In this document: positions 1 through 29,331 of the stretch, in pieces
Position numbering within the stretch: position 1 is the stretch's first letter
How the letters are laid out: every line of letters starts with the position of its first letter
IMG/VR virus record: IMGVR_UViG_3300021964_010723
Source: a virus
Lineage: Duplodnaviria > Caudoviricetes
Length of the DNA stretch: 64,000 bases
Direction: 5' to 3' (one strand)
Position numbers and translations under genes: made by a program
The notes under the pieces: model-generated
What the model was told of the DNA's origin: nothing
The model's database searches: none
Seen by the model: only the letters and a program-made list of their open reading frames with translations

Positions 1-3000
1 TTATCTTAAAAAGTAATTGAGTGCTAGTGGTATACCTGTTACACCTCCAAGGAAGTTTGCAGTTGCGTTAAATTGTATACTTGCACCAGTTACTGTTGAA
101 ATTAAATTTGTACTTATAAATATGTCACCTGCAGTTAACGAGTTAACATTAAGTGAAGCACCACCGCCACCAATTTGAGCTTCAATATAAGCTTTTATTG
201 CTCTTTGCGTTGGTATCACTGAATCACTATCTGCAGTCATAAACGGATCTGTTGAAAATTCGCTTACTGTCGCAGAACTTCCGCCAAGAGTCACTTCACC
301 TAAACTTAATTCTTGTAATCCTGCAATATTAAATGCGTCTGCATTTAGAGTAGCAATACCTGTTGATTGTTCTACGTTAAATAGATTACCTACCCTAAAG
401 TTTCCATCTTGATCAGTGGCAGTAAAAAATACTCTACCGCCAGCAGATTCAACAGTTTCGTATGGTTGGTATGGATCTTGGAACGGCACTCCTGGATAAT
501 TTGTAGATTTAAAATTACCAGTTCCTATATCTAAGAAATCGTGTCCTGTTAGACGTACTTGTGAATATCTTATTCTCATATTCAAAGCAGTTTTATCCGG
601 AGGAACATTAATGCTAGGCATCTCTGGTGATAAATTTAAGAATCCAGTATAACCTCCATCATTTGCTCCTAAGAATGTAACAACATTTACTAATTTAAAC
701 ACATCATTTGGTAAATGATCAAAAACTACGTTTGAACCTGCAACTGGTACATCGGACATTCTTCTAACAGCAACAAAAATTCCACTTTGATCAAATTCTG
801 CATATCCATTTGATTCAGTTGCGCTGATATTTCCACTAGCTGCTTCATACCCTATACCTCTGTTTGTAAATGTTGGATTAGCTAAAACTCCGCTACCTGT
901 TTTAACGGTATAAGTTACGTCATAGATATTGTTAGGATCTGTTAATGTTAGAGTAGGTACGCTTGTGTATCCACTTCCAGGTTCTACTATTCTTATTTCG
1001 AATATTTTTTCATTTGCAATACTAGGGCGAGCAAATGCTTGCATGCCTAATGTCATCCTAACTACATGAGTCTGTACATCTGATCCTTTTAATATCCAAA
1101 CTGGCTCTAAATCTGGATTACCAAAACCTAATGCATTGTATCCATTATTGCCTGCTTGTGCAACAACTGAACGTAATTCCCAATTTGCACAATCTATAGA
1201 AGTTCTAATATTTTCACCTTGCAAGTTATCTATTACAACAAATTGTCCTTGTGCATATTTTATGTCTTTAGAAACTCCTAAGGTAGAACCATCTGCTGGT
1301 AAATCTACGAGCGTCCAACTTTCTCCTCTATCTAATGAATAAATTACATCATTTTGATCTTGCGACACAACTGCAAATCTATTTGCTCCAAATGTAATAG
1401 CACTCCAATTCCTTACAATTGGCGTTAATAATTCATCTGTAAGTAAGACTTTTGTCCATAAAGATGGATTTTGATATTCTGCATATGCAATTGTATTACT
1501 ATCGTCTAAAGCGACTACTAGGCGATTTGCTCCAAATGTGATTCCTACCCAACCGATCTGATCAGGCAAAGCGTCAGCATATTGGGTCCAAGTATTACCT
1601 TCGTCGTCTGAGACTAAAACATCTCTTGATCCTTTAAACATTAAGTAAAACTTGCCTTGACCGTATGTAATGTATGGTTCGCTATCGTAAGCATTTGGTA
1701 AAGCTACAGCACCCCAATTAACATTATCATATGATTGAAAAACTTGATTTTGAGATGTACTTTGGGTTACAATAATCGTAGAACTTACTGCAATATCGCT
1801 AGATCCGTCATATAATATCGCATTAGCAATTTTTGCCGGTCCTGATTGTCCACTTCCTCCAATGGATAAATTTGTCCATGTTGTACCGTCTGTGCTTTTT
1901 TCTATGCTTGTGCTTGTGTCACCAACTGCTATAAAGTCTCCGCTGCAACCAAACCCTTCTTGATCAAATTCTAAAATTGCACCAGTAGTGCTATCACATG
2001 CAGAAGCAATTATTTCTAAATCATTTAGTGGTGTCATTCCGCCTAATTGATCTCCAGGAATGGTTATGCTATCGCCTGTTTTATAATTTGCACCACCATT
2101 AGTTACTGCGACTATATACTTACTACCTACCCTGTTAACTGTAAAAGTGGCTCCTGTTCCTATATCTGAAACAACTAATCCTAGGGTTGGGTTTACATAT
2201 TCTATGCTAGTGTAACACCATGTAATGTCTGTTGTATCCTGCGATGCGCTCAATGTAGTTGCAGTCGTAGTAAACGGAGGTGCTGAAATTGTTATTTTAG
2301 GTTCAATCTGATATACCGAACTTGCATTAGGTGCTGTAATAGGTGTACCTGGATTTAGATGTTCCCAACCAGGTGTTGTTTCATCATTTTTAACCACAGT
2401 TGCAGTTTTGCTGCCTGAGCTGTATGTATCAATTATAGCATATTGGCCTACACCTGTTCCTCCAGTAATAAATATTCTCATTTGTTTGCCGGAATATGCT
2501 GTATCAGGATTACCGTCTGTCGCTGCTAGCGTTAAACTTGTTAATGTTCCAGTTTGAGCGGTATTTGAAACAATTAAGTAACCACTACCGCCAAATTGTT
2601 CTTCGTCACCTGTTAAATCAGTAATCTCTACCCTATTGACAGCCCTGTCTCTAAATTCATCTGTATACGTAGATGCATTTATGCCTGCACCAAAAACATT
2701 TATCACAGCTTCTGTATAAGCTTCTCCTGCATGTGAAAATTCTACATTAATTATTTCGTCGCCAGTTACATTGACATTAGAAATGTCAGCATTAAATTGA
2801 AATCTATTGTCAACTACAGCAGTTACGGGTGTTTCATCAGGGTCTACACCTTCTGCAACAGATCCAAACTTGCCATAACTGTTGTTACCATTAGTAGCTC
2901 TAATTCTGCCACCGTTTTCTGCCAAGTATCCTATGTGTGAATAATATGTAAACACAGATACAAGCTCTGCCCTACCATTATTTGTTATCCAAGCTCCAAT

Positions 3001-6000
3001 ACCATCACTAATTACCTGGGTAAAATCGTTTGAAACGATTGAATCATTACCGCCGTTATGTAATGCACCATCTATCTTTTGTCCTATTGCAGCATGTCCA
3101 AATGTTGTTAAATTTTGCACATACGGTGATCTAGTTGTTATCCATACAGATTCATCATCTGGTCCCCAACCTGGGTCTAAAGATGCATAAGCTCCTGCTG
3201 TTGGTCTCTGTGTTCCTAATAAATTTCCAGCATCAAGATCTCCGTCTAATCCGTCTACAGTCTGTAAGCGTAATCCGGTTGCATTCCTTAGATAGTACAT
3301 GTCTTCTTCTTTAGAACCTAACACACTGTTGACATAATATCTTGCACTTAATTTAGATTTGTAATATGCAGGTAAATTAAATGTAAAATCGTACTGTCGT
3401 AAAACACTGTTTGTAGCAAATCTTCTCTCCCATTGTTGCGGATATACTAAATCCCATCTCATGCCATGGATAATACTTTTTAAATCTCTTGTACAAAGTG
3501 TTCTATTGTATTCGTAAGCAGTTCGGATCGCTAAATTTAAACCTGTGTAATCATTATCAAATTGTACAAGAGTATTACTGGCATCAACAAGCCTAATTTT
3601 AGTTGCGCTTACAATTCTACCAATAGTATATGTATCAGCAAAATTAAAGGTAAATGTTTCTGGAAACACAAATGCATCAGCGTTTGTTATAATAACTTCC
3701 ATTCCTACTTCTAACCATTGTGTAGTAGCTAGTGTCATTGTGTTATCAGCTGCGGTTATGCCAGTAATTACATCTGAATGATAATTATCAACTTTGTTTA
3801 AAACGTCTGCAACAATAAATTCTTTGTTCAAATCTAATATTCTGCTATTTGCATGCAAATCTTTTTCAGCAGTCTGTTGATTATTTCCTTCTGGATTTAC
3901 ACCATAAATTATATCGTTAACAAAATCTATGGTGTAATCTATCTTATCTTTGGCTGCTTGTTCAGACACTGCATTTTTTGCTAAAATTCTAACATATTCA
4001 TTTGCTGCAATGGTAGCTTCTTTTTGGTAACCGTATACTTTAGCAGAAGGTCCTCTTGCATAACTATAAGCTGCAACTATTGAAGCAAAATTTGTATCTA
4101 AACACCAATCATACCTAGCAGCATCTAATATTAGACCTATGTCTCTTGAACATTTTTCATGATCAAAATCAAATCCACTATATACCGATGTAATTTGCTG
4201 GAGTGCCCAGTTTATTGTATATGTTTTTGCTGCATTAATTGCATTTACGGCTGTTGAAATATCACTACTAAACCAATTATTGTCTGGCTGTATTGCTGCT
4301 GGTACTGTAGTTGGGTCATTGGCTGTTATAGAATCAGTAATTATAGCTCTTAATTCATCAATTTTATTATCTTCTGTTGCACCTGCATTTGGTCCGGTGT
4401 AAGGTTGTGATCCACCGCCTAGTGTATTTTGAAAAGCTTGCTTTACATTCGTTGCTAAACTTGTATACAATTGCACACTTGCTGCTCGTTCTGCTGATGT
4501 ACCATATACTGATTCACCAGTTATATTGTTATACAATGCTCTAACAACATTTAGCGTCGCAATGTTACATCCATCTCCGTTAACTGTTTGATCATAATTT
4601 ATATCAAATGCCCAAGATTCTAGTGTTCTTGCTAAATCTTGTTTACATTTTGTTTGTAACTCTGTGCTTAATTGTTGCCAATAAGAATTTGCATTTGCAG
4701 TAAAATCTACAATATAATCTCGATTATTTATAATTTGATTTCTTGCGCTTTCTCTTGTAACAATTCCTCCAGGAATGTTATGGTAAGATACAGCAGGAGC
4801 ACTTGCATCACCATCATTAAATATAGTAGTTAAGTTATTTTGGCTACTATTAATTCGTTGGATTGCTGATGTTGAGTCTGCGTTATTTTGGTTAAAATAT
4901 TCTGTTATTATTTCACTAGCAACAACTCCTACACCATACAATTCCTGTTGGGATTGTTCTTGCTTTACAACACTAGATTGTGCTCTATTGTAGGCATACC
5001 CAGTGTAAATCCCCCAAAAATTTGTTTTTAGTGTTGAGTCTAAAACAAATGCTTCATGTATGTATCCTAAATCTCTTCTACAATATTCACCTCTATATGT
5101 AAAATTTCCAAATTTACTAATAATAAAATCAATAGTATATTCTTGAATATAGGTATAATTATTTGCTAAATTTGTATAATCAGATATTAAGCCGGCTTGT
5201 GCAGTACTAATATCTGGATAGGTTATAGCGGGTAAATTATTTACGTCAGTAACAATAGTAATCAAAATATTCATCAATGTGAAAATTGTATTACTTACAG
5301 TGCCATTGGCTGAGTTTGTAGTAATGATTTGTGATATTTCAGTTTGATACGGATTTATAATTGTATTGTTTATCGCTACATTTTGTAATACTGATTGTAA
5401 ATAGCCGTAAGCATCTAAAGTAGCAGTTATCTCGGTATTATTAATTTGCAATATACCTGTTACTCCAGAATAATATGCTAGGGCTGCATTAATTGTTTGC
5501 CAATTACCTCCATAGACTAAATCATAACAAATTGCATCTATTACGTAACCAACATCTTGTTGACACTTTGTTCTACTATAAGATAATGTCTCATATTGGT
5601 CATCTAGAAAACCTTGAATTTCTCTTTTAATGAAATCTCTATTTAAGAAAATATTTTCTTTTGCGTATCCATAAACAGGTTCTGCTAGAGCATATGAAGC
5701 AGTAAAATCTGCTTCAGTTTTTCTTCCAATACCGTGATCAATAAATCTTTTAATTACCCTTGCTAGTTGTGTAGTTGCTAAAGCTGTAGAAGGACTACCT
5801 ATTGGCCAATCTGTTAGTTGAGCTTCGTTATTTCCTAATTCTGCATTGACTGTGATTCCTTGGCTAATATCTTCTAAAATATTTTCTAGATGATCTAAAG
5901 CTGCATAGGTGTACTTTATATCAGTCGTTGGTGTCAATCCATTCTCAACTTTCCTTGGATACACAGTAACTGACCTTAATTCGTCTCCCATAACACAACA

Positions 6001-8070
6001 TTGAGCTGGAACAATTATAGGTAAAACTTCATAATATTTTCCAGTTGCTACCTTAATCAATGTATTAGTTTCTATCCTAGTTGGAATTCCTGTTTCATCT
6101 CCTGCTGCGATAGCAGTTGTAATTATATTTGTTAATTCTGTTATTCGAGCGTATACTTGTTCTACGTCTAAGTTTATGTTTTTATATTGTTGTACAACTG
6201 CTGTAGAATTATCTCCATTGAAAACTTGCCAACTATTTGTTCCTGATGTTCCTATTTCTAAAGGATCGGTTTGATTAACAACATTTTCCATTAATGCTAG
6301 CGCAAAATTAATACTTGCATTTGTTTCAGCAGCTTGATTTAAAAGATAAAAATTTGTTGCGTCATTAACATAACTTAATGCAACTTCTCTTACTCTTACA
6401 TTTCCTCCATGTGTTAAATCATGAATAATTGCATCTACGATAAAACCAATATCTCTTTCGCATTTTTCTCTATTATAATTGAAATTCACCGTAAAAGGTG
6501 AATTACCTTGTGTAATTTGATAATCTGTCCATTCTACAGTTTCTCTTTGTATGTAGATTCTATTTAGGTCTAATATCTGTCTTGCAGCAGGATATTTTGC
6601 ACCGTCTAGAATTTGTTCAGCAGCATATCTTATACTTGCCCAAGGAGATTCTATTGTTGTTCCTCTAATAGGCGCAGGTTGATCAACACCTGTAGTTGAC
6701 ACATAGTAAACATCTGGATTTTGTCCAAAGAATGTCCATTCGGGTGTAGCGTCTGCAGATACTCTTAGAACTTGTCCTTCTTTACCTATCGGTAATCTTG
6801 TAGGTCCTGCTCCACCGTAATATACTAGATCCCCCAATTGCTCTAAAGCATCTGTTTCTGAACCTATTGCAAGTACATTCCAGTATCTACCAGTTATGTC
6901 TAAATCTGGTCTACTATTTTCTGCTCCTCCTCCTGGAGGTGTTTTTGTTTCTGTTGAAAAATCATCATCATCACTTACGTGAGATTCTATACACACATAT
7001 GACGATTTATCATATCTAACAACATCACCTACAACATAATATCCATCATCTACCCATTGTCCTCTCCAGCGTAGACCTGTTGACATTAAGTCCCAATAGT
7101 CCTCCCAACCTGTAACTTCCCCAGGTTCAATAGCACTGTTATCAGCAGTAGCAACATAAACAGAACTTCCTACAGTTACAACATTTCCAGTTCTATATTC
7201 TTGAGCACTGTCTAATGCACCCCATTCTCCACTAAATGCAAAACCTTTTGCAAAAACTTTCCATGTTATAGCAGAGCTTGTTGGCTGTGTATTAATATTT
7301 TGAATAAGAGCTATATATTGATAACCGCCCCAAACCACAATATCGCCTGCTTGATATGTAGTTGTTGAATCCCACTCGTCTTCGAAGCTTACTCCTTCTA
7401 CAAATGTGTCCCATTTAAAATTATCGCTTCCAAATTCAGTAACTGATGTATGATATTCATTACATAGATATAATCCAGCTCCGTATTTTACTACATCATT
7501 GACTTTGTATCTAGTAGACGGCGTCCATAATCCTTTCCAGTCTATACCTGAAGTAAATCTATCCCATTTTGATAGATCATTTTCTAAACCAGAAGCATTA
7601 CTTGCTGCAGATAAATGTTCAGTGTTACATACCCAAGTCCCGCTACCATATTTTACAATTTCATTTGGTCTGTATGTGGTATTGATATCCCAATCACCTT
7701 TCCACTCTAATCCTGTAGCAAATACATCCCAATTTTCTATTTCGTCACCTAAATTTTGTTGTAAGTCGCTAGTAGATGTATGTACTATTTTACAAATGTA
7801 CAAACCAGCACCAAATTTAACTATATCGTTGTAAACATAATAAGTAGAATTTTGCCATTCACCTTTCCAGGTTTGTCCGTCAGCCATCAGTTGCCACTTT
7901 GCAGGAGCACTGTCTAAATCGTCATAAAATGACGGTAAACTTGTGTGTCCTAAAACACAAATATATAATCTACCTCCAATTTGAACAACATCATCTCTAT
8001 AATAAGTTGTGCCAGTAGTCCATGTATTTTTCCATACAAACCTAATTCTACCAAGTTTAAACTCTGCCAT
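1..8070 (-). CDS. Giant virion structural / tail-associated protein (2689 aa): N-terminal W-x-G-x-W...Y-x-x-D-x-V carbohydrate-binding-like repeats, pectin-lyase-like segment, helical CxRD repeats, BNR/Asp-box propeller
   Basis: Complete ORF with stop at 1-3. GGAG Shine-Dalgarno and TAAATA upstream. Repeats such as WKGDWDINTTYRPNEIVKYG; Asp-box motifs SYDNVNW, SDDEGNTW, SLDRGESW. Paralogous to 8108-13549. Confidence 0.75.
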   Translation of the reverse strand: MAEFKLGRIRFVWKNTWTTGTTYYRDDVVQIGGRLYICVLGHTSLPSFYDDLDSAPAKWQLMADGQTWKGEWQNSTYYVYNDIVKFGAGLYICKIVHTSTSDLQQNLGDEIENWDVFATGLEWKGDWDINTTYRPNEIVKYGSGTWVCNTEHLSAASNASGLENDLSKWDRFTSGIDWKGLWTPSTRYKVNDVVKYGAGLYLCNEYHTSVTEFGSDNFKWDTFVEGVSFEDEWDSTTTYQAGDIVVWGGYQYIALIQNINTQPTSSAITWKVFAKGFAFSGEWGALDSAQEYRTGNVVTVGSSVYVATADNSAIEPGEVTGWEDYWDLMSTGLRWRGQWVDDGYYVVGDVVRYDKSSYVCIESHVSDDDDFSTETKTPPGGGAENSRPDLDITGRYWNVLAIGSETDALEQLGDLVYYGGAGPTRLPIGKEGQVLRVSADATPEWTFFGQNPDVYYVSTTGVDQPAPIRGTTIESPWASIRYAAEQILDGAKYPAARQILDLNRIYIQRETVEWTDYQITQGNSPFTVNFNYNREKCERDIGFIVDAIIHDLTHGGNVRVREVALSYVNDATNFYLLNQAAETNASINFALALMENVVNQTDPLEIGTSGTNSWQVFNGDNSTAVVQQYKNINLDVEQVYARITELTNIITTAIAAGDETGIPTRIETNTLIKVATGKYYEVLPIIVPAQCCVMGDELRSVTVYPRKVENGLTPTTDIKYTYAALDHLENILEDISQGITVNAELGNNEAQLTDWPIGSPSTALATTQLARVIKRFIDHGIGRKTEADFTASYALAEPVYGYAKENIFLNRDFIKREIQGFLDDQYETLSYSRTKCQQDVGYVIDAICYDLVYGGNWQTINAALAYYSGVTGILQINNTEITATLDAYGYLQSVLQNVAINNTIINPYQTEISQIITTNSANGTVSNTIFTLMNILITIVTDVNNLPAITYPDISTAQAGLISDYTNLANNYTYIQEYTIDFIISKFGNFTYRGEYCRRDLGYIHEAFVLDSTLKTNFWGIYTGYAYNRAQSSVVKQEQSQQELYGVGVVASEIITEYFNQNNADSTSAIQRINSSQNNLTTIFNDGDASAPAVSYHNIPGGIVTRESARNQIINNRDYIVDFTANANSYWQQLSTELQTKCKQDLARTLESWAFDINYDQTVNGDGCNIATLNVVRALYNNITGESVYGTSAERAASVQLYTSLATNVKQAFQNTLGGGSQPYTGPNAGATEDNKIDELRAIITDSITANDPTTVPAAIQPDNNWFSSDISTAVNAINAAKTYTINWALQQITSVYSGFDFDHEKCSRDIGLILDAARYDWCLDTNFASIVAAYSYARGPSAKVYGYQKEATIAANEYVRILAKNAVSEQAAKDKIDYTIDFVNDIIYGVNPEGNNQQTAEKDLHANSRILDLNKEFIVADVLNKVDNYHSDVITGITAADNTMTLATTQWLEVGMEVIITNADAFVFPETFTFNFADTYTIGRIVSATKIRLVDASNTLVQFDNDYTGLNLAIRTAYEYNRTLCTRDLKSIIHGMRWDLVYPQQWERRFATNSVLRQYDFTFNLPAYYKSKLSARYYVNSVLGSKEEDMYYLRNATGLRLQTVDGLDGDLDAGNLLGTQRPTAGAYASLDPGWGPDDESVWITTRSPYVQNLTTFGHAAIGQKIDGALHNGGNDSIVSNDFTQVISDGIGAWITNNGRAELVSVFTYYSHIGYLAENGGRIRATNGNNSYGKFGSVAEGVDPDETPVTAVVDNRFQFNADISNVNVTGDEIINVEFSHAGEAYTEAVINVFGAGINASTYTDEFRDRAVNRVEITDLTGDEEQFGGSGYLIVSNTAQTGTLTSLTLAATDGNPDTAYSGKQMRIFITGGTGVGQYAIIDTYSSGSKTATVVKNDETTPGWEHLNPGTPITAPNASSVYQIEPKITISAPPFTTTATTLSASQDTTDITWCYTSIEYVNPTLGLVVSDIGTGATFTVNRVGSKYIVAVTNGGANYKTGDSITIPGDQLGGMTPLNDLEIIASACDSTTGAILEFDQEGFGCSGDFIAVGDTSTSIEKSTDGTTWTNLSIGGSGQSGPAKIANAILYDGSSDIAVSSTIIVTQSTSQNQVFQSYDNVNWGAVALPNAYDSEPYITYGQGKFYLMFKGSRDVLVSDDEGNTWTQYADALPDQIGWVGITFGANRLVVALDDSNTIAYAEYQNPSLWTKVLLTDELLTPIVRNWSAITFGANRFAVVSQDQNDVIYSLDRGESWTLVDLPADGSTLGVSKDIKYAQGQFVVIDNLQGENIRTSIDCANWELRSVVAQAGNNGYNALGFGNPDLEPVWILKGSDVQTHVVRMTLGMQAFARPSIANEKIFEIRIVEPGSGYTSVPTLTLTDPNNIYDVTYTVKTGSGVLANPTFTNRGIGYEAASGNISATESNGYAEFDQSGIFVAVRRMSDVPVAGSNVVFDHLPNDVFKLVNVVTFLGANDGGYTGFLNLSPEMPSINVPPDKTALNMRIRYSQVRLTGHDFLDIGTGNFKSTNYPGVPFQDPYQPYETVESAGGRVFFTATDQDGNFRVGNLFNVEQSTGIATLNADAFNIAGLQELSLGEVTLGGSSATVSEFSTDPFMTADSDSVIPTQRAIKAYIEAQIGGGGASLNVNSLTAGDIFISTNLISTVTGASIQFNATANFLGGVTGIPLALNYFLR

Positions 8071-8107: not shown

Positions 8108-11100
8108 TTAGGTATCAAAATTTCTCAAGTAATATGATAATGCTAACGGTGTTCCTTTAACACCTTTATTAGATACACCGTAAAAATCCATTCTTTTATC
8201 AAAATTCACTTTGAAACCTGTTGTAGTACTAATTATATTTTCAGTTGTTCCAACACGTACTTGGCCTGCTATAAGTTCGTTAGTTAAAACTTCTCCGCCT
8301 CCTGCACTAATTCTTTCTTGGATAAACTGTATGATAGCCCTTTGAGTAGGAACAACGTTGTCAGAATCTGCAAAGAATACTGGATCAGTTGAAAATTCTC
8401 TAATTACAGTTCCTGAACCTCCTAGTCTTACTCCGCCCAATGCTAACTCAGACAATCCATCTAATGAAAAGAAATCAGCACTAATAGTTACAATACCTGT
8501 AGCTTGTTCTACCGCAAATAATTCACCTGTTCTAAAATTACCGTCCTGATCTGTAGAGACATAAAAAACTCTTCCTCCGCTTAACTCTATTACTTCTTGT
8601 TCTGGTTTAGCTATAAAGAAAGCACCACCTGCGTATAATTCTGGATAATTTGTTTGTTCAAAATTTCCAGTTCCTATATCTAAGAAATCATGTCCAGTTA
8701 CTCTACATTGCGAATATCTTTCTCTTATTTCTACAGACCTACCATGAGTTAAAAAGTCTTTATTTTGAATTTTTGGACTTACCCTAATTTGAGCTCTAAA
8801 TGTATCTGCTAGGGTTCCGTCAGAGCCAAGAGGTGTAATTGTTACTAAAGTTAGAATCCTAAGGATTTCATCTTCTGGATCTTCGTCTTCGTCTAAAATT
8901 CCAGTTATCCGTAACTGTGCTCCAGGTCCTGGATAACGTGCTAAACCATCTATAACAAGGTCAACTTCATTTGATGGAATTATATCTGCAAATCCATCAC
9001 CTTCAATTGTAACTCTTGTGGTACTACTTCTATAACCTATACCTCTATTAATAAAAGACGGTTGACTAAGAACATTTAGTCCAAATCTTAAGGTAACAAA
9101 TGCTTGCGAAACCCATTGATTATCATAAAATATTTCTGTGCTATAGTTAACATTATCTTTGTAACCACTTCCAGGATCCCAAATCACTACTTCTTCTATT
9201 GTATTACTTGCTATTTTTGTTCTTGCAAGAGCCTGCTTTCCTGTGTCTATCAATACCAAATCACTGTCATTGTAAGAAATACAACAATATGTGTATGATG
9301 TATTTCCTGTGTAACCAAAAGATATTGCATTCCATCTGTTGGTACCTAAAGGTAGTTCTTCTGTTCTCCAATTTATGCCGTCCTCAGATATTCCAATTAA
9401 ATTTCCTTCGTAAGCTGTAGTTAAAAAATAAAGGCCATTGCCTTGTGATATTTTAGTCCAGTTACCTAAAGGTAAATTATCATAAACTGTCCATGTTTCT
9501 AGAGTTTCTGTAATACATGAAACAATCAAATTATCGATTGTTAATGCTGAAATGTGCCCAGCTAAATAAATCATGTTTCTAAATTCACAAGGATTAGATG
9601 TGTTAGGATTAACTGGTATTATATTGCCGGTAACTGTCCATGTTAAAACACCATTTTCATACACACCTGTTGCAATTGCTTCTGCATCAGATAATGCAAT
9701 AAATTTATCATAACCGTAAGTAATTACTGTCCAGTCTGTAGTTATTGCATTTGTTAACAAGCTTGTTGACCACGTAGTTCCGTTAGTGCTGTAATACGAG
9801 GTATTAGAATTTGTCAAAATTACAAAAACTCCATCTCCATATGCAATGTCTTTTATGTTTAACGACGAAGGTAAAACAACACTACTCCAAGCAGTTGCAG
9901 TTGTCGATCTTGCTATAATACTTGATTGTCCTGTTGGAATAGCTAAAAATATTCCGTCACCGTTTATTACTTTATTCCATGTCTGTATAGTTGGTAGTGT
10001 ATACTCTGACCAATTTACTCCATCTACAGATACACTAACAAAATTTCCATCCGAAATAACTACAAATTTTCCTGGTAAACCTAAGCCGTCAAAATCAAAC
10101 GCAACAATACTTGCCGTACTATCATCTGTAACTTCTGTTATTTTAATATTGAGATCATTTTCTTCATCATTTCCGCCTATTGATGATCCAACAATTGTAT
10201 ATGTTTCTCCAACTGCATAACCTGCACCAGGATCATCTAAAGCAACTGAGTAGACAGATCCTGTTTTTGTAATTGTTAAAGCAGCTCTAGCAGCAACAAC
10301 ACCATCAGTCTCACCTTCTCCAAAATCTAAAGATATTAAAAATTGTTCGGTAGTAATTCCCCATGTGATATCTGTCCATAATTTTGATTGACCGATAGAT
10401 GATAAAGTAGTATCATATCCTGGGTGTGGTATTGTAACACGAGGTTCTATAGAATATGTAGTGCTTGCTGTTAATAATGGTTCTATAACTGTTCCTGGCA
10501 CTATGTGATCAAAACCTAATGTGTCATCGCTTTCTTTGTAGATAGTAGCAGTCCTATAATCAACACTATTTTCATCGTCATCGTATGCTTGAATATAGCC
10601 ATATTGACCTGTTCCTGGTCCAGATGTAATAACTAATCTTTGTCCAACATAATCTTCTGCTGTGCGCAAATCAGTTGCTGAAAGTAAAATGGTTGAATCA
10701 GTACCTTCTTGTGCATTATTTTTAACATTTGTATAACCTAATCCTCCAATACGTGTACTATCTTGCGGTTCTAATAATCTAATTTGTTTAATGCCACCTT
10801 GCCTAAAATTATCATATTTAGTATTAACAAAATTACCAGCTCCTACTACAGTTGCTGTAGCATTTAAATAATTTTCTCCACAATGACTATATTCAAATAT
10901 AAGTAACCGATCTAATTCTCCGGTATCGTCTGAAATTTCTCCTGCAAAAGCAGAGTAAACTGATGCTTGTGTAGTCCGATTGTTTACTGTTGCAGTTTGT
11001 GGTGTTTCAGCATCATCTATTCCTATAGCTACACTGCCGTATTCTCCATAACTGTTATTTCCATTTGTAGCTCGTATTGTTCCTCCGTTTTCTGCCATAT

Positions 11101-13549
11101 ACCCAACGAAACAATAATATGTAAATACCGATACTAGCTCTACTCTGCCTCTGTTGAGTATATATGCTCCTATTCCGTCACTAATCACTTGCGTAAAGTC
11201 ATTTGCTACAAGTGATCGATTACCACCATTGTGTAAGTCTCCGTCTATATGAGCCCCAATACAACCTACCCCTATAGTAGTTACGCCCTGGATATATGGA
11301 GAACGATTTTGAATCCATACAGATTGATCATCTGGTCCCCATCCAGGATCTAAACTAACAAAAGCACCTCCCGAAACTCGTGTGGTTTGAATTTGGGAAC
11401 GTTCCCCTGTAATTGTTCCTGTTAAGCCTTCTGTTGTACAATTTCTTACTCCAGTAATATCTCTAACTAGGAACATGTTTTCTTTTTCTGATCCAATAAT
11501 ACCATTTACATACAAATTTGAGTATCTTTGAGTTTTGTAATTACCTTCATATCTAAAATCATATTCGTAAGCTTCGAGAAAAAGTAACATGTCTTTTACT
11601 AATTTGTCTTCATCAATAGGTACTATTGATATTGATTTACTGTAAATCATACATTCAGTAGCTAAGTAATTTGCGTTATCTCGTATTAAACCCGCTGCAA
11701 GTATAAATTCATTATTTGCTAAATTATTACTTCCTGTAATTGTAATATTGGTATTTTCACCTTGTAATAATAATTCTATGCTGTCCGTAATTTCGTCTGT
11801 TAAATTAGCATAATAATTTATTAACTCTTGTTCATTATTGAACTGAGCTGATAACGTTACTGGAGTAAAAGGATTATCATCGTGTGTATCTGGTAAATTG
11901 CCTGCTATTATTGTTGTAAATAACGATCGTCCATATGCAAGACTATTATATATAACAGTCGAATTATTTTCTCCTGCACCTTTTGCAACTATGTTAGTAG
12001 ATCTTAATTCGTCTCCCATTACTACTGTCATTTTAGGCACAACTATTGGTAATATTTCTTCATATCGACCAGTACTCACAGAAATTTTACAAGGCATTAT
12101 GTTCCTTGTTTCTACAAATCTACATGCATAATTGATTGTTTTAAAAGGATGATAAGGATCTAAACCTCTATCCGATGCATCAACACCAGTAGGTGTTACG
12201 TAAACAACTGTGGTTTCTGTTTGGTGTATAGTCCTCCAAAAAACACTCGATTCTTGATTTATAGATAATAATTGATCGTAGTCTCCAATATTAACTGCAG
12301 TAGGTCCAATTGTACTTGTGTCGCCTACAAATTCTCTTTGGAAATCATATGTTAATAAATCGCCAGGATTGTTCATACCAGCTTCGCTACCGCTTTGAAC
12401 AACTAAATCCCAATAAAAAAATCCTTTACCATTATCGCCAGGAATATTTACTATTGCTGAAATATGTGTTGTATTGCATCTCCATGTTTCACCTAAAAAA
12501 TAAACTAAATCATTAATCACATATCTAGTTTGATTTTTCCAAAAATTTGTCCATTTTTGACCCGGTATAAACAGTTTCCAAGAATTTACATCTTCGAGAT
12601 CGTCATACGAAGGATCTGCACCTGTAACTCGGACTGCTCTATATACTTGACCACCTGCTTTAGCTAAATCTCCAGGTTTATAAGCCTGTTCAACACTGAA
12701 TTCTCCAGTAAATGCTACTGATGCGAGTAAAATTTCCCAATAAGATATACTATCATCATTAGACGCCGGTGAAACAGCATAGTTTTCAACTAAACATATA
12801 TACAATGTACCACCAAAATTAACAATATCTCCTACACCATAATATACAGTTTCGTCCCAAACATCTGCAAAAACATAACCAGGTACAACTAATTCAAATT
12901 TATGTCGGTCAATTTCATTACCACTAATGTGAGATTCTAGTACTACATATATACTACCGCCAAAATTTACATAGTCATTTTTCTTATAAAAAGTGCTAGC
13001 TTCAAAATCTCCTACAAACATGTTACTATCTGTAAACAACGTCCAGTCATTAATATTATTTTCTAAAAAATTGCTCGATGTATGAGAAATCACACATTTA
13101 TAATTAAGTCCATTATATTTTACAATAGCTCCAGCACCGTATTCTTTATTTGCAATCCATTCTTTTACATATTCTTGTCCACTAACAAAAAGCTGCCAAT
13201 TATTATTATCATTTACAAATGTAGTAGAATAGTGTCCTGATATAGCAAGCCAAAGAGATCCGTCAAATAATACAATATCTCCTTCTTCATACTGTTGATT
13301 ATTAGTCCATCTTCCTACAAATGATTGCCCGCCAGTCATCAAAATCCAATAAGGATCTGGAACTGGTGGAGAACTTTCTGGAATCGTTGCTTTTAGATCA
13401 ATGTTAAAATCTGCATTAGAAACATGCTGTTTGATACACACATAACTTTTACTGTTTACATTAACAACATCATCTCTGTTATAAGTAGTCCCTGGTAACC
13501 ATGGACCTGTCCAATTATACTTAAATCTTTCTAGTTTAAATTCTGACAT
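8108..13549 (-). CDS. Giant virion structural protein (1813 aa), paralog of 1-8070
   Basis: Shares MxEFKL start, W/Y-rich N-terminal repeats, VMGDELRS, SLDPGWGPDD, NDFTQVISDGIG, GHDFLDIGTGNF, TDQDGNFR and PTQRAI motifs with the 2689-aa protein. Confidence 0.75.
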   Translation of the reverse strand: MSEFKLERFKYNWTGPWLPGTTYNRDDVVNVNSKSYVCIKQHVSNADFNIDLKATIPESSPPVPDPYWILMTGGQSFVGRWTNNQQYEEGDIVLFDGSLWLAISGHYSTTFVNDNNNWQLFVSGQEYVKEWIANKEYGAGAIVKYNGLNYKCVISHTSSNFLENNINDWTLFTDSNMFVGDFEASTFYKKNDYVNFGGSIYVVLESHISGNEIDRHKFELVVPGYVFADVWDETVYYGVGDIVNFGGTLYICLVENYAVSPASNDDSISYWEILLASVAFTGEFSVEQAYKPGDLAKAGGQVYRAVRVTGADPSYDDLEDVNSWKLFIPGQKWTNFWKNQTRYVINDLVYFLGETWRCNTTHISAIVNIPGDNGKGFFYWDLVVQSGSEAGMNNPGDLLTYDFQREFVGDTSTIGPTAVNIGDYDQLLSINQESSVFWRTIHQTETTVVYVTPTGVDASDRGLDPYHPFKTINYACRFVETRNIMPCKISVSTGRYEEILPIVVPKMTVVMGDELRSTNIVAKGAGENNSTVIYNSLAYGRSLFTTIIAGNLPDTHDDNPFTPVTLSAQFNNEQELINYYANLTDEITDSIELLLQGENTNITITGSNNLANNEFILAAGLIRDNANYLATECMIYSKSISIVPIDEDKLVKDMLLFLEAYEYDFRYEGNYKTQRYSNLYVNGIIGSEKENMFLVRDITGVRNCTTEGLTGTITGERSQIQTTRVSGGAFVSLDPGWGPDDQSVWIQNRSPYIQGVTTIGVGCIGAHIDGDLHNGGNRSLVANDFTQVISDGIGAYILNRGRVELVSVFTYYCFVGYMAENGGTIRATNGNNSYGEYGSVAIGIDDAETPQTATVNNRTTQASVYSAFAGEISDDTGELDRLLIFEYSHCGENYLNATATVVGAGNFVNTKYDNFRQGGIKQIRLLEPQDSTRIGGLGYTNVKNNAQEGTDSTILLSATDLRTAEDYVGQRLVITSGPGTGQYGYIQAYDDDENSVDYRTATIYKESDDTLGFDHIVPGTVIEPLLTASTTYSIEPRVTIPHPGYDTTLSSIGQSKLWTDITWGITTEQFLISLDFGEGETDGVVAARAALTITKTGSVYSVALDDPGAGYAVGETYTIVGSSIGGNDEENDLNIKITEVTDDSTASIVAFDFDGLGLPGKFVVISDGNFVSVSVDGVNWSEYTLPTIQTWNKVINGDGIFLAIPTGQSSIIARSTTATAWSSVVLPSSLNIKDIAYGDGVFVILTNSNTSYYSTNGTTWSTSLLTNAITTDWTVITYGYDKFIALSDAEAIATGVYENGVLTWTVTGNIIPVNPNTSNPCEFRNMIYLAGHISALTIDNLIVSCITETLETWTVYDNLPLGNWTKISQGNGLYFLTTAYEGNLIGISEDGINWRTEELPLGTNRWNAISFGYTGNTSYTYCCISYNDSDLVLIDTGKQALARTKIASNTIEEVVIWDPGSGYKDNVNYSTEIFYDNQWVSQAFVTLRFGLNVLSQPSFINRGIGYRSSTTRVTIEGDGFADIIPSNEVDLVIDGLARYPGPGAQLRITGILDEDEDPEDEILRILTLVTITPLGSDGTLADTFRAQIRVSPKIQNKDFLTHGRSVEIRERYSQCRVTGHDFLDIGTGNFEQTNYPELYAGGAFFIAKPEQEVIELSGGRVFYVSTDQDGNFRTGELFAVEQATGIVTISADFFSLDGLSELALGGVRLGGSGTVIREFSTDPVFFADSDNVVPTQRAIIQFIQERISAGGGEVLTNELIAGQVRVGTTENIISTTTGFKVNFDKRMDFYGVSNKGVKGTPLALSYYLRNFDT

Positions 13550-23573: not shown

Positions 23574-25544
23574 TTACTTGTCAAAGTTATGGTAAACTGT
23601 TATAGGTTTGCCTAGGTCAGGAGCTGATGTAAATTCTAAATATTGTCCAGTTGGTCTTACTAAACCAGTTCCTAACGCCTTACCTTGCACAGTGTACACA
23701 TATGCCTTACCACTTGTATCACCTGTACTATCATCTTCTTGATATGCACCTACTATTAGATGCGTGTTTGACACAGATACAGCAGATCCGAATTGATCAT
23801 CTTGTGCAGTACCAAACCCATTTGGATTAGCAATATCTCCTAATCTTGCTCCAGTAAGTAGATCATAAACATATACCACACCACTATTTGTACCATTAGC
23901 ATCATCTTCTACATGAGAGCTTACTACTGCATAGACATCAGATATGCTTACTTTAAAACCAAATCTATCTTCAGTAGCTAATCCAAATGGATTTGGATTT
24001 ACGATGCCTCCAAATTCATCATTTAAAAATTCTTCTTCTGCAGTAACACCATCCCAATCTGGATTATTATAAAATATTGGATCTAATGTTGTAGGAGAAA
24101 CAGGATCATTAGCTGGTAATTCATAAATATAAACTACACCTTGATCTATTTTGCTTGTAGCATCTTCGTTGTACGCTCCTACTATAGCATATCTATTAGA
24201 AATGTCTATGCTGTATCCAAAACCATCATCAACTGTTGCTGTATTAGGATTTGTTAGGGTGTATAGTAAAGTTCCTTGTATATTGTAAATATATACTTTA
24301 TTTTGATAAGTAGATCCTGATACAGGATTTGTACCAATAATTATATAATTGTCACTAATTGCTACAGTAGATCCAAACCAACTTCCTGCAGAATCTGGAT
24401 TTGGTATAATTGTATTATTTGGCAAATTGCTAAGATTAAATAGATATGCTGCACCTACTCCAGTTGTGATATTGTCTTCATTAGGTGCTCCTACAATTAG
24501 ATGTGTATTGGAAATTGAAACTGAGTAACCAAAATAATCAGTTGCATCTACCGCTCCTGTATTTGGACTGACAATAGAATAATCAGGTACTGCTGGATTT
24601 ATGTTTGCTAGATCATACAGATAAATTCTTCCAGAATCATTTCCTAATCCTACTCCTGCATCATCTTCTTGGAATGCACCTACTACAGCCCATGTATTAC
24701 TTATAGATACAGCAAACCCAAACAAGTCTTCAGTACCACCACCATAAGGATTAGGATTATCTAATTGATGTAAAAGTGTTCCTGAAATATCAAAAATGTA
24801 AGCTTTTCCTGATTCGGTAAACGTTGGGTCATCTTCTTTGTATGCACCTACTAATATTAAACTTGATGTATCATTGTTATTAATTGCCACGCTGTAACCA
24901 AAAAAGTCCTCAAAAGTAGTTCCAGCGTTTCCATTTGGATTCTTTAATGTAAGAATTTGATCTACTGATAGATCTATATTAGCTGTAAATATTGTTCCTG
25001 TAGAATTAGCAGATGCGCCTACTCTTGTAAAATCTGTTTGTTTTGCAGGATCTGTTCCGAGATTTGTAATTATGTATTCTTCGCCATTTACAAGATAAAA
25101 TACTTCTACTTCGTCACCGGTTCCTGTAGTAAAAGGATTTTCTACCATAACAAAATTTGTAGGAGCAATTTGGAATACATTTTCTACAAAAACAAGTATG
25201 TTGTTTGCACTTAAAGGAACAGGAAATGCTGCATCATTACTTAGTAACGGACCAAAAATTGTTTGTACCTGATCGCCTAAACTCATTAATTGTTTTGTAA
25301 TTAGACCAGGTTCTTTAAATCTAACAACTTGCCAAACATTATTAGCATAAAACTCAAATTCATTTATCGTGGTATTATATCTAACCATACCATTTACTGG
25401 TAAAGTTGGTTTGGTAGCTGAGGTTCCAGTTGGAATAACCATAACATTTGCATCTATAGATGCAAAATCATTACTTGCATTATATTTGTAACCTTTACCT
25501 GTGATGCTACGACTATTTGTTGTATGTTCTTTTATTAGTCTCAT
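23574..25544 (-). CDS. Virion structural protein with FG-GAP beta-propeller (656 aa)
   Basis: About seven repeats (D/E)xFGx(S/A)V(A/S/D)ISxxxx(V/I)(V/I)GAxxED...GxxYxY; N-terminal PTGTxAxxPxxPVNGMVRYNT motif. Confidence 0.8.
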   Translation of the reverse strand: MRLIKEHTTNSRSITGKGYKYNASNDFASIDANVMVIPTGTSATKPTLPVNGMVRYNTTINEFEFYANNVWQVVRFKEPGLITKQLMSLGDQVQTIFGPLLSNDAAFPVPLSANNILVFVENVFQIAPTNFVMVENPFTTGTGDEVEVFYLVNGEEYIITNLGTDPAKQTDFTRVGASANSTGTIFTANIDLSVDQILTLKNPNGNAGTTFEDFFGYSVAINNNDTSSLILVGAYKEDDPTFTESGKAYIFDISGTLLHQLDNPNPYGGGTEDLFGFAVSISNTWAVVGAFQEDDAGVGLGNDSGRIYLYDLANINPAVPDYSIVSPNTGAVDATDYFGYSVSISNTHLIVGAPNEDNITTGVGAAYLFNLSNLPNNTIIPNPDSAGSWFGSTVAISDNYIIIGTNPVSGSTYQNKVYIYNIQGTLLYTLTNPNTATVDDGFGYSIDISNRYAIVGAYNEDATSKIDQGVVYIYELPANDPVSPTTLDPIFYNNPDWDGVTAEEEFLNDEFGGIVNPNPFGLATEDRFGFKVSISDVYAVVSSHVEDDANGTNSGVVYVYDLLTGARLGDIANPNGFGTAQDDQFGSAVSVSNTHLIVGAYQEDDSTGDTSGKAYVYTVQGKALGTGLVRPTGQYLEFTSAPDLGKPITVYHNFDK

Positions 25545-27038: not shown

Positions 27039-27488
27039 TTATTCGTCTTCAACGAAATCAGTAGCATTTAATCCAGCATCATTATCGCCTGCTTCTTCTA
27101 CTTCTACAGCACCGTCATCTAGAGCTGTTGAGAAGTTCCATGGAATTGATTTTCCGTCATAAGCATTTGTCCCTTGAGCTGTTGGAGCAATTACTGTCAT
27201 TTTACGTCCAGCAATTTTTTTACAATTGTATGTTTCTTCGTCGTCTGCTTTTACGGATATCGACATTTCAGTACCAGTTAGTGTTGCAGGTAATTTACCC
27301 CAAGTAAGAAATCTATCGTAAGTTGGTGTACCACCTGTTCCAAGTTCTGCTACTCTAAATTTTTTGCTGCCTAATTGCTTAACAATGTATCCTTGTACAA
27401 CACTGGCTGTGGCCCAAAAATCAACTTTGATTTCTTTACCTGCTGCAGTAGGTGTTCCAAAGAATTTTTTATTAATTGGTCTTCCCAT
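27039..27488 (-). CDS. Hypothetical, probably structural protein (149 aa, MGRPINKKFFG...)
   Basis: AAGGAG SD, own late promoter and structured leader, own terminator. Confidence 0.7.
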   Translation of the reverse strand: MGRPINKKFFGTPTAAGKEIKVDFWATASVVQGYIVKQLGSKKFRVAELGTGGTPTYDRFLTWGKLPATLTGTEMSISVKADDEETYNCKKIAGRKMTVIAPTAQGTNAYDGKSIPWNFSTALDDGAVEVEEAGDNDAGLNATDFVEDE

Positions 27489-27586
27489 TTTTTTCTCCTT
27501 GTTAGAAGTCCGATCCGGGTTCTATCCGGTACGCTGTGGGTCAGCATAAGTCCACCCTTGTGGCACACTATCGCACAAAGTATTTA
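27489..27586 (-). promoter_or_regulatory. Late promoter (TAAATA 27586-27581) plus GC-rich structured 5' leader (candidate cis-regulatory RNA)
   Basis: Three consecutive hairpins: CUUUGUG/CACAAGG, UAUGCUG/CAGCGUA, and CCGG/CCGG with an AUAGAAC loop, all ahead of the SD. Confidence 0.55.
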
Positions 27587-27715
27587 TCAAGTTTTAGGCT
27601 TGTTTTGTTTTTGTGCTAACCATGCTTTTTTTGCCCAGTTTGGCAAATCTTTAAAGCGATAGTTAGTTAAGCCTATTTGTTCATTTTCGTCTTGATCTAC
27701 TAATTCTCTGTGCAT
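27587..27715 (-). CDS. Small hypothetical protein (42 aa, MHRELVDQDENEQIGLTNYRFKDLPNWAKKAWLAQKQNKPKT), not in the ORF track
   Basis: AGGAG SD 5 nt upstream of ATG; overlaps the iscU 3' end and fills the gap. Confidence 0.5.
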   Translation of the reverse strand: MHRELVDQDENEQIGLTNYRFKDLPNWAKKAWLAQKQNKPKT

Positions 27716-28086
27716 TGCTTACTCCTGTAATCTTTTATTGCTGCTTTTATAGCATCTTCTGCTAAAACTGAACAATGAATTTTTACTGGCGGTAATGCAA
27801 GTTCTTCTACTATTTCTGTATTTTTTATTTCAAATGCTTCGTTAATTGTCTTGCCCTTTACCCATTCTGTTGCTAAACTACTACTTGCAATAGCCGATCC
27901 ACAACCAAATGTTTTAAATTTTGCATCAACAATTTTTTCATCTTCTACACGAATTTGTAATTTCATAACGTCACCGCATTCCGGTGCACCAACTAATCCT
28001 GTACCAACATCTGCTGCTGATTTGTCTAAACTGCCTACGTTCTTAGGATTGTTATAGTGTTCTAATACTGCATCATTATATGCCAT
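27700..28086 (-). CDS. iscU: Fe-S cluster assembly scaffold IscU (auxiliary metabolic gene)
   Basis: HYNNPKNVG, GAPECGDVMKLQI, FGCGSAIASSS and LALPPVKIHCSVLAEDAIKAA: all three Cys, the Asp, the His and the LPPVK motif are present. GGAG SD. Confidence 0.97.
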   Translation of the reverse strand: MAYNDAVLEHYNNPKNVGSLDKSAADVGTGLVGAPECGDVMKLQIRVEDEKIVDAKFKTFGCGSAIASSSLATEWVKGKTINEAFEIKNTEIVEELALPPVKIHCSVLAEDAIKAAIKDYRSKQCTEN

Positions 28087-28100
28087 GGTTTTTTCTCCAT

Positions 28101-28134
28101 AAAAAAAGGTTCTATAAAAGTATTTATAGAACCT
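28101..28134 (-). terminator. Major capsid gene terminator containing an embedded TATAAATA late promoter
   Basis: 12-bp stem AGGTTCTATAAA-TACT-TTTATAGAACCT followed by a T-run on the minus strand; TATAAATA at 28128-28121. Confidence 0.8.
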
Positions 28135-28158: not shown

Positions 28159-29331
28159 TTAGCTGAAACTTACGTTTGAAGCTGTAATTTCTACTTTATT
28201 CAAGTAATCAGCAGCATTACCAAGAGATGAAGCTGTATTTGTTAATTCTACATATCCATATCTTGTCATAAAGCTAACTACTGGCTCGAATGTAGCTGGA
28301 TCAAGTACTGTTCCACTGCTCATCAATGGAATGTATGGACAGTAGAATGCAGCAGCATCGCTTTCACTTGAACCTTTGTAACCAATAAGTACATCAGTGT
28401 CATCACCTGCATATGTATCAACATATACTTTCATAGCATTATTTAATGTACCAACAAACTTTGTATTTGTAGGAGCTTCAAATGTACCTTCTGTTGTTCT
28501 AGCAAATGCACTGGTAGTTGCACTTTGTAGAATTGTCAAAGCAAACGGAGAAACAACTGCCCAGTTAGCAGCGCCTCTTCTTGTTCTTTGAGCAACAACG
28601 TTTGCAGCTCTGTTAATCAATACTGCTAATGCAGCATGCTCGTCGCCTACGAATGTAGCTGTACCAGACACTGCTGTTTGATCATATGCACCTGTAGAAC
28701 CACTTAAAGTTCGTAAACTTTGAAGGACTTCTTGATCAATCTCAGCGGTAATTTCTTGTGCTAAAGCTGCCATAATTTCAGCTTCAACATCAATTCCGTG
28801 CATTGCTTGAGCATCTTGAGCAGCTTCGAAGGTCCAGCGAGCGCTGAGCTTTCTTGTTTTAGCTTCAACAGTTTGCTTCAAGATTTGAATTGACATTCTT
28901 CGACCAGCTTGACCTTCTAAAGAAGCTGTTGCGTCTGGTCTACCATTTGGATCTGTTCCAGTACCGGAGTAGCTGTTAGCAATCTTAAATGGTGACAATG
29001 CTTCTTCACCTGCGGTTACATCTCCATTTGACATTGTATCTGAATATCGTACACGGAGTGTATGAATTTGACCTACTGGTCCTGTCATTGGTTGAACACC
29101 AACTATTTCGTTAGCAATAACGGTTGGCATTACCCTTCTAATAACTGGTAAAATTACTCTGTTTAGGGTAGCAATATTACCGGCTGCTGTACTTCCAGCG
29201 GTTGCACTTTCAAGTAAATGCTTTCTTGTATTTTCCAAAGTCGTTGCCATGACGCTTTTTTTCGTGCCTTGTAGGCCTTCTAGAAGTGCAGCTCTAGTAT
29301 CCTGCCAGCGACTCTCTAATAATTCTGACAT
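28159..29331 (-). CDS. gp23: Major capsid protein (T4 gp23-like)
   Basis: GVQPMTGPVGQIHTLRVRY, TVEAKTRKLSARWTFEAAQD, EITAEIDQE, FYCPYIPL and F..RYG motifs. Confidence 0.96.
   Translation of the reverse strand: MSELLESRWQDTRAALLEGLQGTKKSVMATTLENTRKHLLESATAGSTAAGNIATLNRVILPVIRRVMPTVIANEIVGVQPMTGPVGQIHTLRVRYSDTMSNGDVTAGEEALSPFKIANSYSGTGTDPNGRPDATASLEGQAGRRMSIQILKQTVEAKTRKLSARWTFEAAQDAQAMHGIDVEAEIMAALAQEITAEIDQEVLQSLRTLSGSTGAYDQTAVSGTATFVGDEHAALAVLINRAANVVAQRTRRGAANWAVVSPFALTILQSATTSAFARTTEGTFEAPTNTKFVGTLNNAMKVYVDTYAGDDTDVLIGYKGSSESDAAAFYCPYIPLMSSGTVLDPATFEPVVSFMTRYGYVELTNTASSLGNAADYLNKVEITASNVSFS

Follow-up and report, generated by a model that had tools for sequence, protein, structure and literature searches.

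The E. coli rpsO/S15 and alpha operon/S4 operators enclose the start codon in a pseudoknot, which can be stabilized by a protein. The preQ1-II and SAM-II/SAM-V riboswitches are H-type pseudoknots that bury the Shine-Dalgarno (SD) sequence and control metabolic genes. In the leader of gene 32 of phage T4, a 5' pseudoknot nucleates the cooperative binding of the single-strand-binding protein gp32; it is located a long way upstream from the start codon, and an unstructured A/U-rich tract comes after it. Read-through transcripts of the T4 late genes soc, e, and 49 are kept from translation by a hairpin, inside which transcription from the late promoter starts.

To our knowledge, no organism, gene function, or mechanism has been linked to the freshwater-2 RNA family (RF02980), and we know of no place given to it among the riboswitch candidates listed by its discoverers. 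The motif reportedly originates from the 2017 survey of 224 motifs by Weinberg et al. The main text of the 2017 discovery paper (PMC5737381) is silent on the freshwater-2 motif, and a literature search found no paper naming RF02980 or the motif. Here we describe a freshwater-2 leader in a stretch of viral DNA of 64,000 nucleotides, which is referred to as the window.

The freshwater-2 leader and its late transcription unit

The initial annotation of the locus had presented the leader as a riboswitch-like element and had suggested an Rfam scan. The scan of the whole window returned a single match in the 64 kb, to the freshwater-2 RNA RF02980 at positions 27567–27486 (-). The match has a score of 67.1 bits, above the curated gathering score of 49.9, spans model positions 1–84 of 84, and has an E-value of 4.8e-8 for the whole 64-kb window. 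The leader thus adds one more copy to an orphan family already catalogued in Rfam, where it has the type Cis-reg, and does not represent a new class. The RF02980 model is composed of a 6-bp P1 hairpin, P2, P3, and a linker, followed by AAGGAGAAAAcAAAUG. In the model alignment, the window copy forms three consecutive hairpins with the P2 strands UUAUGCNG/CNGCGUA and a UAGAAC loop in P3. The SD sequence AAGGAG (27500–27495 (-)), which had already been pointed out together with the upstream TAAATA box, is part of the Rfam consensus AAGGAGAAAAcAAAUG and is followed by an A-rich spacer (27494–27489). Both the SD and the start codon ATG (27488–27486) lie inside the model. There is no structural difference between the window leader and the freshwater-2 family, and the conserved UUAUGC/GCGUA and UAGAAC are common to both. 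An origin in aquatic metagenomes is said to characterize the family, and it also applies to the window copy, for which no cultured carrier was found in 50,697 phage records.

The leader is preceded by the T4-type late promoter box ATAAATA in the window sequence (27587–27581 (-); GATAAATA when position 27588 is included, 27588–27581). The leader lies 6 nt downstream of the box, and the expected late start site is at about the same distance, some 6 nt past the box, near position 27575. Of 184 non-identical copies of the element, 182 have TAAATA in the 60 nt upstream of P2, and 138 have ATAAATA. The late box ends 11–51 nt 5' of P2, and its background frequency is 0.02 per 120 nt. Because the box is present in 182 of the 184 copies against a background of 0.02, the element is the 5' leader of a separate late transcription unit, which agrees with the original view of the gene as a separately regulated unit. 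In relatives, the late box of the leader is often preceded by a terminator hairpin. In addition to the TATAAATA-like box, the window contains a gene for a gp55-like late sigma factor (43747–44532 (-); phrog_12791, E 7e-78; phrog_234, E 9e-22), which is likely to be the factor that reads ATAAATA. The window has 19 ATAAATA sites compared to 48.7 ± 6.9 in shuffled sequences, a strong depletion that fits selection against stray late promoters.

The distance from the late box to the ATG (27488) is 92 nt. As noted in the initial annotation, the leader is GC-rich, with a GC content of 0.51 compared to 0.34 for the window, whereas the window's other ATAAATA-led leaders are short and AT-rich, with lengths of 17–69 nt and GC contents of 0.17–0.26. 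The gene had also been proposed to have its own terminator. A GC-rich terminator-like hairpin, AUGUAGGCAC-UUU-GUGCCUACAU, followed by the U tract AUUUUGG, can be read by eye after the gene (27030–27001 (-)), but the terminator scan made no call. In estuary metatranscriptomes (three runs), contigs identical to the window cover positions 27315–27562 and 27307–27494, which include the gene and the leader. The longest identical contig stops 5 nt inside P1, and none crosses the promoter. Since transcript ends are not resolved by assembled contigs, and carried-over DNA may be their source, the RNA-library coverage is taken as a weak hint.

The window belongs to a T4-like phage with a gp23-type major capsid protein encoded at 28159–29331 (Pfam Gp23, 2e-99). 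It also encodes a gp21-type prohead protease, a scaffold-like protein, a portal protein, and SbcCD-like nucleases. The capsid protein is 69–71% identical to those of cultured jumbo phages with genomes of 285–470 kb, namely Vibrio 2.275.O, GAP32, 121Q, PA5oct, and Phosso. The order on the minus strand is protease, scaffold, capsid, IscU/NifU-like protein, a 42-aa open reading frame, the leader, the gene of a protein starting with MGRP, a 351-aa protein, and further conserved genes.

The surroundings of the leader have several additional features. The gene of the IscU/NifU-like Fe-S scaffold (27700–28086 (-); Pfam NifU_N, 2.7e-53) is positioned between the major capsid gene and the MGRP unit, and an IscU-like gene is present on that strand in 2 of the 121 loci listed, including the window. 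The 42-aa open reading frame (27587–27715 (-)) overlaps the end of the IscU gene, stops exactly at the late box, and has no family match. A perfect 12-bp palindromic hairpin, AGGTTCTATAAATA-CTTT-TATAGAACCT, is located between the capsid gene and IscU (28107–28134). It contains the late box TATAAATA inside its 5' arm, was called terminator-like on both strands, and may serve as terminator and late promoter at once. A 656-aa protein with seven FG-GAP repeats (Pfam, 7e-60), which is conserved in 30 related loci, is encoded three genes further downstream than the MGRP gene (23574–25544 (-)). The head module is flanked by three giant open reading frames, at 1–8070 (-) with 2689 aa, at 8108–13549 (-) with 1813 aa, and at 54086–64000 (+) with more than 3305 aa; the last is still open at the end of the window.

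Helices of the leader and the proposed start-codon pseudoknot

The folding of the leader as a single sequence was uninformative (z = -1.07, no better than shuffled sequences), and the case for its structure therefore rests on the comparison with relatives. In IMG/VR, a scan with an exact pattern of the core of P2 and P3 identified at least 120 contigs with lengths from 4 to 328 kb. The comparison set contained about 190 non-identical copies from viral metagenome contigs, among the matches listed, and covariation was evaluated in an alignment of 150 distinct copies. The copies are related to each other, and the comparisons with shuffled sequences given below therefore overstate their independence.

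According to the Rfam alignment, P1 is the hairpin UGUGCC-ACAAG-GGUGGA (27567–27551 (-)), with the conserved P1 strands UGUGCC/GGUGGA. The hairpin is weak in the window copy, where it contains one G-G mismatch and two G-U pairs, and about one in six copies has a weak P1 or none. The sequence of P1 is free, with 139 distinct hairpins in 176 copies, and the mean stem score is 5.1 compared to 2.8 in shuffled sequences. A different P1, CUUUGUG/CACAAGG (27580–27574 with 27562–27556), had been drawn in the initial annotation. It can be formed in the window copy, but its equivalents in about 150 relatives have a mean of 4.5 contiguous pairs compared to 4.4 in shuffled controls, and its 5' arm overlaps the expected late transcription start.

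The P2 hairpin UAUGCUG-ACCCA-CAGCGUA (27548–27530 (-)) has a 7-bp stem of near-invariant sequence, in which 99.6% of the alignment cells are paired. The bases of pair 7–26 were left free in the search pattern; they form GC in 70, AU in 44, and UA in 32 of the 150 distinct copies, and are complementary in all but 4. P2 also contains a U-G pair that is invariant in the 150 copies. The same pair would be a C-A mismatch on the other strand, and the fold is therefore specific to the sense strand. The P3 hairpin CCGG-AUAGAAC-CCGG (27529–27515 (-)) abuts P2 directly and has the conserved loop UAGAAC. Its cells are paired in 96% of cases, and each of its four pairs covaries, with 4–6 pair types in the 150 distinct copies. 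When the partners are slid by 1–3 columns, pairing in P2 and P3 falls to 21–42%. The alignment demonstrates covariation of the predicted helices P1–P3 across the family and, by comparative criteria, the leader is a functional element. P2 and P3 as originally drawn agree with the family covariation and with the Rfam match. The covariation check suggested at that time thus upheld P2 and P3, which covary strongly, while the P1 drawn at the time and a pseudoknot with an upstream GGGU are not conserved.

P3 is followed by the linker AUCGGACUUCUAAC (27514–27501 (-)). A long linker is present in some sub-families only, and these share AUNGGACU(U/A/C)CU between P3 and the SD. The CUUCU segment of the window copy (27508–27504) could pair with AGGAG of the SD to form a small SD-masking hairpin. 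This pairing was rejected as a family feature: it is limited to the long-linker sub-families, the CUUCU, CUCCU, and CUACU variants lack clear compensation, and the common CUACU variant would mismatch AGGAG.

The P2 loop ends with CCCA (27540–27537 (-)), the proposed 5' strand of a pseudoknot, which is complementary to UGGG of the gene start AUGGGA. The proposed 3' strand is formed by U+2 to G+5 (27487–27484 (-)) and thus includes two bases of the start codon AUG (27488–27486). The 5' side of the P2 loop is variable in size across the family, and its end is usually CCCA or CCCG, which complements U+2, G+3, G+4, and G+5 of AUGGGN. The loop lacks the CC[AG] core in approximately 10% of copies. 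In a fixed register, 82% of the pseudoknot cells are paired, compared to 7–55% when the register is shifted. In 75% of leaders, the loop can form four or more consecutive pairs with the start region, compared to 44% with shuffled loops. The initial annotation had paired the P2 loop with the upstream GGGU instead, but four such pairs can be formed in 39% of leaders and in 41–45% of controls, and this partner was abandoned. The P2 loop had no pairing signal when tested against the upstream region and the linker, and no alternative partner was found there.

The proposed pseudoknot has only 3–4 pairs, and three of the four 3' partners are invariant; therefore, its covariation rests on one position. 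The pair between the loop and position +5 is CG in 98 and GC in 12 of the 150 distinct copies. A separate scan identified 89 loci with an AUGGC gene start, and many of their loops contain GCCA, GCCG, or AGCC. The loop base that faces +5, which directly precedes the CC[AG] core, is G in 10 of 26 copies with AUGGC and in none of 119 copies with AUGGG (Fisher, 6e-9). The compensated AUGGC copies belong to about nine protein lineages, the nearest MG relatives of which carry CCC loops, whereas approximately 6–7 AUGGC lineages are uncompensated, for example those with UAYGUCCA and UCCCC loops. In one sub-family, AAAUCCAA with AUGGGA is replaced by AACAGCAA with AUGGCU. This is a double compensation one register further on, in which UCC with GGA becomes AGC with GCU in terms of the core. 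Second codons that do not start with G were represented by 0 loci behind the fixed SD context, for which the search pattern was probably too strict. Covariation is demonstrated by these comparisons at one predicted pair of the pseudoknot, that of the loop with +5, and the switching at this pair supports an H-type pseudoknot that would hide the start codon.

The complementary bases are located where an H-type pseudoknot needs them, on the 3' side of the P2 loop at its end. In the proposed geometry, P2 would be stem 1, stem 2 would adjoin the 3' strand of P2, and the long third loop would hold P3, the linker, and the SD. The proposed pseudoknot extends two bases past the end of the Rfam model.

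The predicted arrangement resembles the S15 and S4 operators in that a hairpin loop pairs with the initiation region and the start codon is within the pseudoknot. Freshwater-2 has no sequence relation to these operators and heads a phage late gene; the likeness may be one of the way of working, not of family membership. With the T4 gene 32 leader, freshwater-2 shares its place at the head of a phage mRNA, a pseudoknot, which is proposed here, and possibly control by the gene's own product. However, the gene 32 pseudoknot lies well upstream of the initiation region, whereas the covarying freshwater-2 pseudoknot would include U+2 to G+5 and hence the start codon, and the 149-aa protein encoded downstream has no gp32-like family match. 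The compact H-type pseudoknot, the A-rich 3' strand, and the occlusion of the initiation region predicted for freshwater-2 are reminiscent of the preQ1-II and SAM-II/SAM-V riboswitches, to which no Rfam match was found in the window. In contrast to these riboswitches, the SD of freshwater-2 is open, the AUG would be buried, and the gene belongs to a virion module. A T4-type late promoter and an RNA structure at the initiation region are shared with T4 soc, e, and 49, but the conserved structure of freshwater-2 is entirely downstream of the late start, and thus in the late transcript itself.

The MGRP gene and the distribution of the element

The leader precedes the gene of a 149-aa protein (27488–27039 (-)) that starts with MGRPINKKFFG. 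The protein is predicted to be all-beta, with a small beta-barrel formed by residues 1–80 and an acidic tail. It has approximately 1,000 relatives of similar length, none of which is named or has a Pfam family. Searches with the protein itself gave no Pfam or PHROG family, no RNA-binding family, and no gp32-like features. The AlphaFold model is all-beta and has a pLDDT of 87 and a pTM of 0.84. A Foldseek search with the model against the PDB yielded no match at E <= 0.001; the Foldseek matches are uncharacterised phage proteins, two of them from Agrobacterium phage Atu_ph07. In the ESM Atlas, the model has a TM-score of 0.54 to an uncharacterised viral cluster. The best VIA-align match of residues 1–80, to Tudor/chromo/SH3/KOW-like barrels, has a Z of 5.3, and since Z values under 8 are common, this is too weak for a function to be assigned to the protein.

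The N-terminus M-G-R-P-[LIV]-[KN]-K is kept at the protein level, with the arginine encoded by CGU 66 times and by AGA 40 times, and the proline by CCA or CCU. Among the matches listed, the MGRP proteins have lengths from 116 to 512 aa, with a constant N-terminus and a variable remainder. The late promoter, the place beside the head genes, and the hypervariable C-terminal parts suggest that the MGRP product may be a virion-surface protein with a conserved N-terminal anchor.

The element is linked to MGRP genes in the aquatic contigs. The next open reading frame starts with ATG GGN (AGN/CGN) CCN, encoding MGRP, in 117 of 121 loci among the matches listed, and the remaining 4 start with MGN or MAR. 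Conversely, UAGAAC is present within 110 nt upstream of 131 of the 146 genes with an SD and an MGRP start among the matches listed, and several more carry close variants. A gp23-like capsid gene is on the same strand in 76 of the 121 loci listed and immediately upstream in 33. Near-complete contigs of 318 and 328 kb have one motif match each.

Some phages have a second tandem MGRP-start gene (L141:5935–5963; L171, approximately 2710) with a late box and an SD and without the freshwater-2 motif. The motif also precedes genes whose products start with MATKKIPAK, MAHTRKLHYK, and MANTRKIHYK (L185, L241, L186, and L202), for which BLAST shows no link to MGRP; the P2 loops at these loci are not complementary to AUGGC. 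One MGRP-family protein, of 373 aa (locus L073:993–2111 (-)), ends with a PA14/GLEYA carbohydrate-binding domain (Pfam, 5e-13), a hint that the C-terminal variability may be that of exposed binding modules.

Searches of 50,697 phage records with the leader (blastn) and with three MGRP proteins (tblastn) gave no usable match. In the four cultured jumbo relatives Vibrio 2.275.O, Sinorhizobium Phosso, PA5oct, and 121Q, an Rfam scan of the region after the capsid gene gave terminators only, with no freshwater-2, and no MGRP gene was found there. The best DNA holders of the window sequence are estuary metagenomes. From the contigs that carry it, the freshwater-2 family appears to be one of uncultured T4-like phages from aquatic habitats. 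Many of these phages are giant, with contigs of up to about 330 kb.

Proposed translational control and alternative explanations

The best explanation, to which we assign a probability of about 0.58, is that the freshwater-2 leader is the 5' UTR of a late mRNA of an uncultured jumbo T4-like estuary phage and that it functions as an operator with a start-codon pseudoknot. Transcription would start a few bases after the gp55-type late box. The RNA would fold into the variable P1, the 7-bp near-invariant P2, and P3 with its UAGAAC loop, which would stack on P2, followed by an open SD. The last four bases of the P2 loop, CCCA, would pair with U+2 to G+5 of AUGGGA. The resulting H-type pseudoknot is predicted to enclose P3 and the SD and to bury the start codon, while the SD would stay open. 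Judging from this geometry, closure of the pseudoknot would restrain translation initiation at the MGRP gene. The strong open SD and the A-rich spacer suit a highly expressed gene, and the repression is therefore expected to be mild at most. A putative trans-acting factor would recognise the conserved surface of P2 and P3 and set the closure of the pseudoknot. The factor would most plausibly be a protein, possibly the product of the MGRP gene, for which co-occurrence is the evidence at hand. From the comparison of the copies, a translational operator on a late mRNA is the most likely nature of the element.

The main rival is a constitutive leader, in which the 5' hairpins would stabilise an abundant late mRNA against 5'-end-dependent decay, and the role of the small pseudoknot would be to fix a set initiation rate relative to the capsid protein, with no effector involved. 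The strong and open SD and the position of P1, within approximately 8 nt of where the 5' end is expected, are consistent with such a leader. So are two negative results: no effector was found, and neither was a mutually exclusive fold, as the P2 loop had no signal against the upstream region or the linker. However, a simple stabiliser should tolerate any stable hairpin, and the near-invariance of the P2 stem and UAGAAC across very divergent phages, in which the P1 and P3 stems vary freely, therefore counts against it. Furthermore, there is one copy of the element per genome, linked to a single gene type, and the window's other late leaders are short and unstructured. We consider the constitutive leader possible but rather unlikely.

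Autogenous repression is a specific version of the operator explanation, in which surplus unassembled MGRP protein would bind its own leader through its N-terminal peptide or barrel and lock the start-codon pseudoknot, in the manner of ribosomal protein S15 on rpsO mRNA or of gp32 on the T4 gene 32 leader. The RNA motif co-occurs with the N-terminus M-G-R-P-[LIV]-[KN]-K, although the remainder of the protein varies from 116 to 512 aa, and the N-terminal peptide is conserved at the protein level, as its mixed arginine codons indicate. The SH3/Tudor/KOW-like barrel modelled for residues 1–80 belongs to a fold class that often binds nucleic acids. Nevertheless, the fold match is below a meaningful level and no RNA-binding family was matched. 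The motif is also found ahead of the MATKKIPAK and MAHTRKLHYK proteins, and the second tandem MGRP genes lack it. The co-occurrence could equally be explained by the inheritance of the anchor peptide and the leader as one module. Repression of the gene by its own product is possible but rather unlikely.

A small-molecule riboswitch would have a ligand pocket formed by the pseudoknot of P2 with the start codon and by the A-rich strand, and ligand binding would close the start codon. Highly conserved nucleotides, the pseudoknot architecture, the A-rich 3' strand beside a helix junction, and the Rfam type Cis-reg are in line with this explanation. The controlled gene, however, encodes a late capsid-module protein without a metabolic link, and the conserved bases are mostly in a regular helix and a hairpin loop rather than in a junction or an internal loop; a metabolite riboswitch is therefore improbable. 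In addition, no second conformation was found. The broader proposal that the leader represents a new class of sensor RNA in giant phages, with an H-type aptamer for a host metabolite or ion gating the start codon of a virion-surface gene, has a similarly small chance of being correct. If it were true, the make-up of the capsid would be linked to the state of the host cell.

It had also been suggested that the repeated GGA sites resemble those of CsrA/RsmA targets and could recruit the host global translational repressor. The window copy does contain five GGA trinucleotides in 87 nt, one of them in the SD, and GGACUU twice (27553–27548 and 27511–27506). However, the window copy is an outlier: with the SD counted, the family averages 2.1 GGA per leader, compared to 1.4 in shuffled sequences, and 136 of 191 leaders have two or fewer, whereas CsrA/RsmA leaders carry several conserved GGA sites, as a rule in loops and with one that overlaps the SD. 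The extra GGAs are in freely covarying stems, and a CsrA/RsmA target is very improbable. An element that acts as DNA, for example a protein site close to the promoter or a signal for recombination or packaging, would fit the position next to the promoter and the strongly conserved primary sequence, but it is contradicted by the strand-specific pairing, with compensatory changes that keep the pairing intact, an invariant P2 U-G pair that would be a C-A mismatch on the other strand, and a fixed orientation and distance to the SD and AUG, and has hardly any chance of being correct.

The analysis adds little to general principles; its value is in the context and in a testable pseudoknot model. The context now given to freshwater-2 is that of a jumbo T4-like phage, a late promoter, the MGRP gene family, and a proposed pseudoknot between a hairpin loop and the start codon. 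Freshwater-2 is located at the 5' end of a late transcript and is tied to one hypervariable gene family beside the capsid genes. The proposed pairing of the loop CCCA with UGGG of the start-codon region makes the model testable by mutation. If the operator model is true, freshwater-2 would be a translational operator specific to phages, with the start codon instead of the SD as its target.
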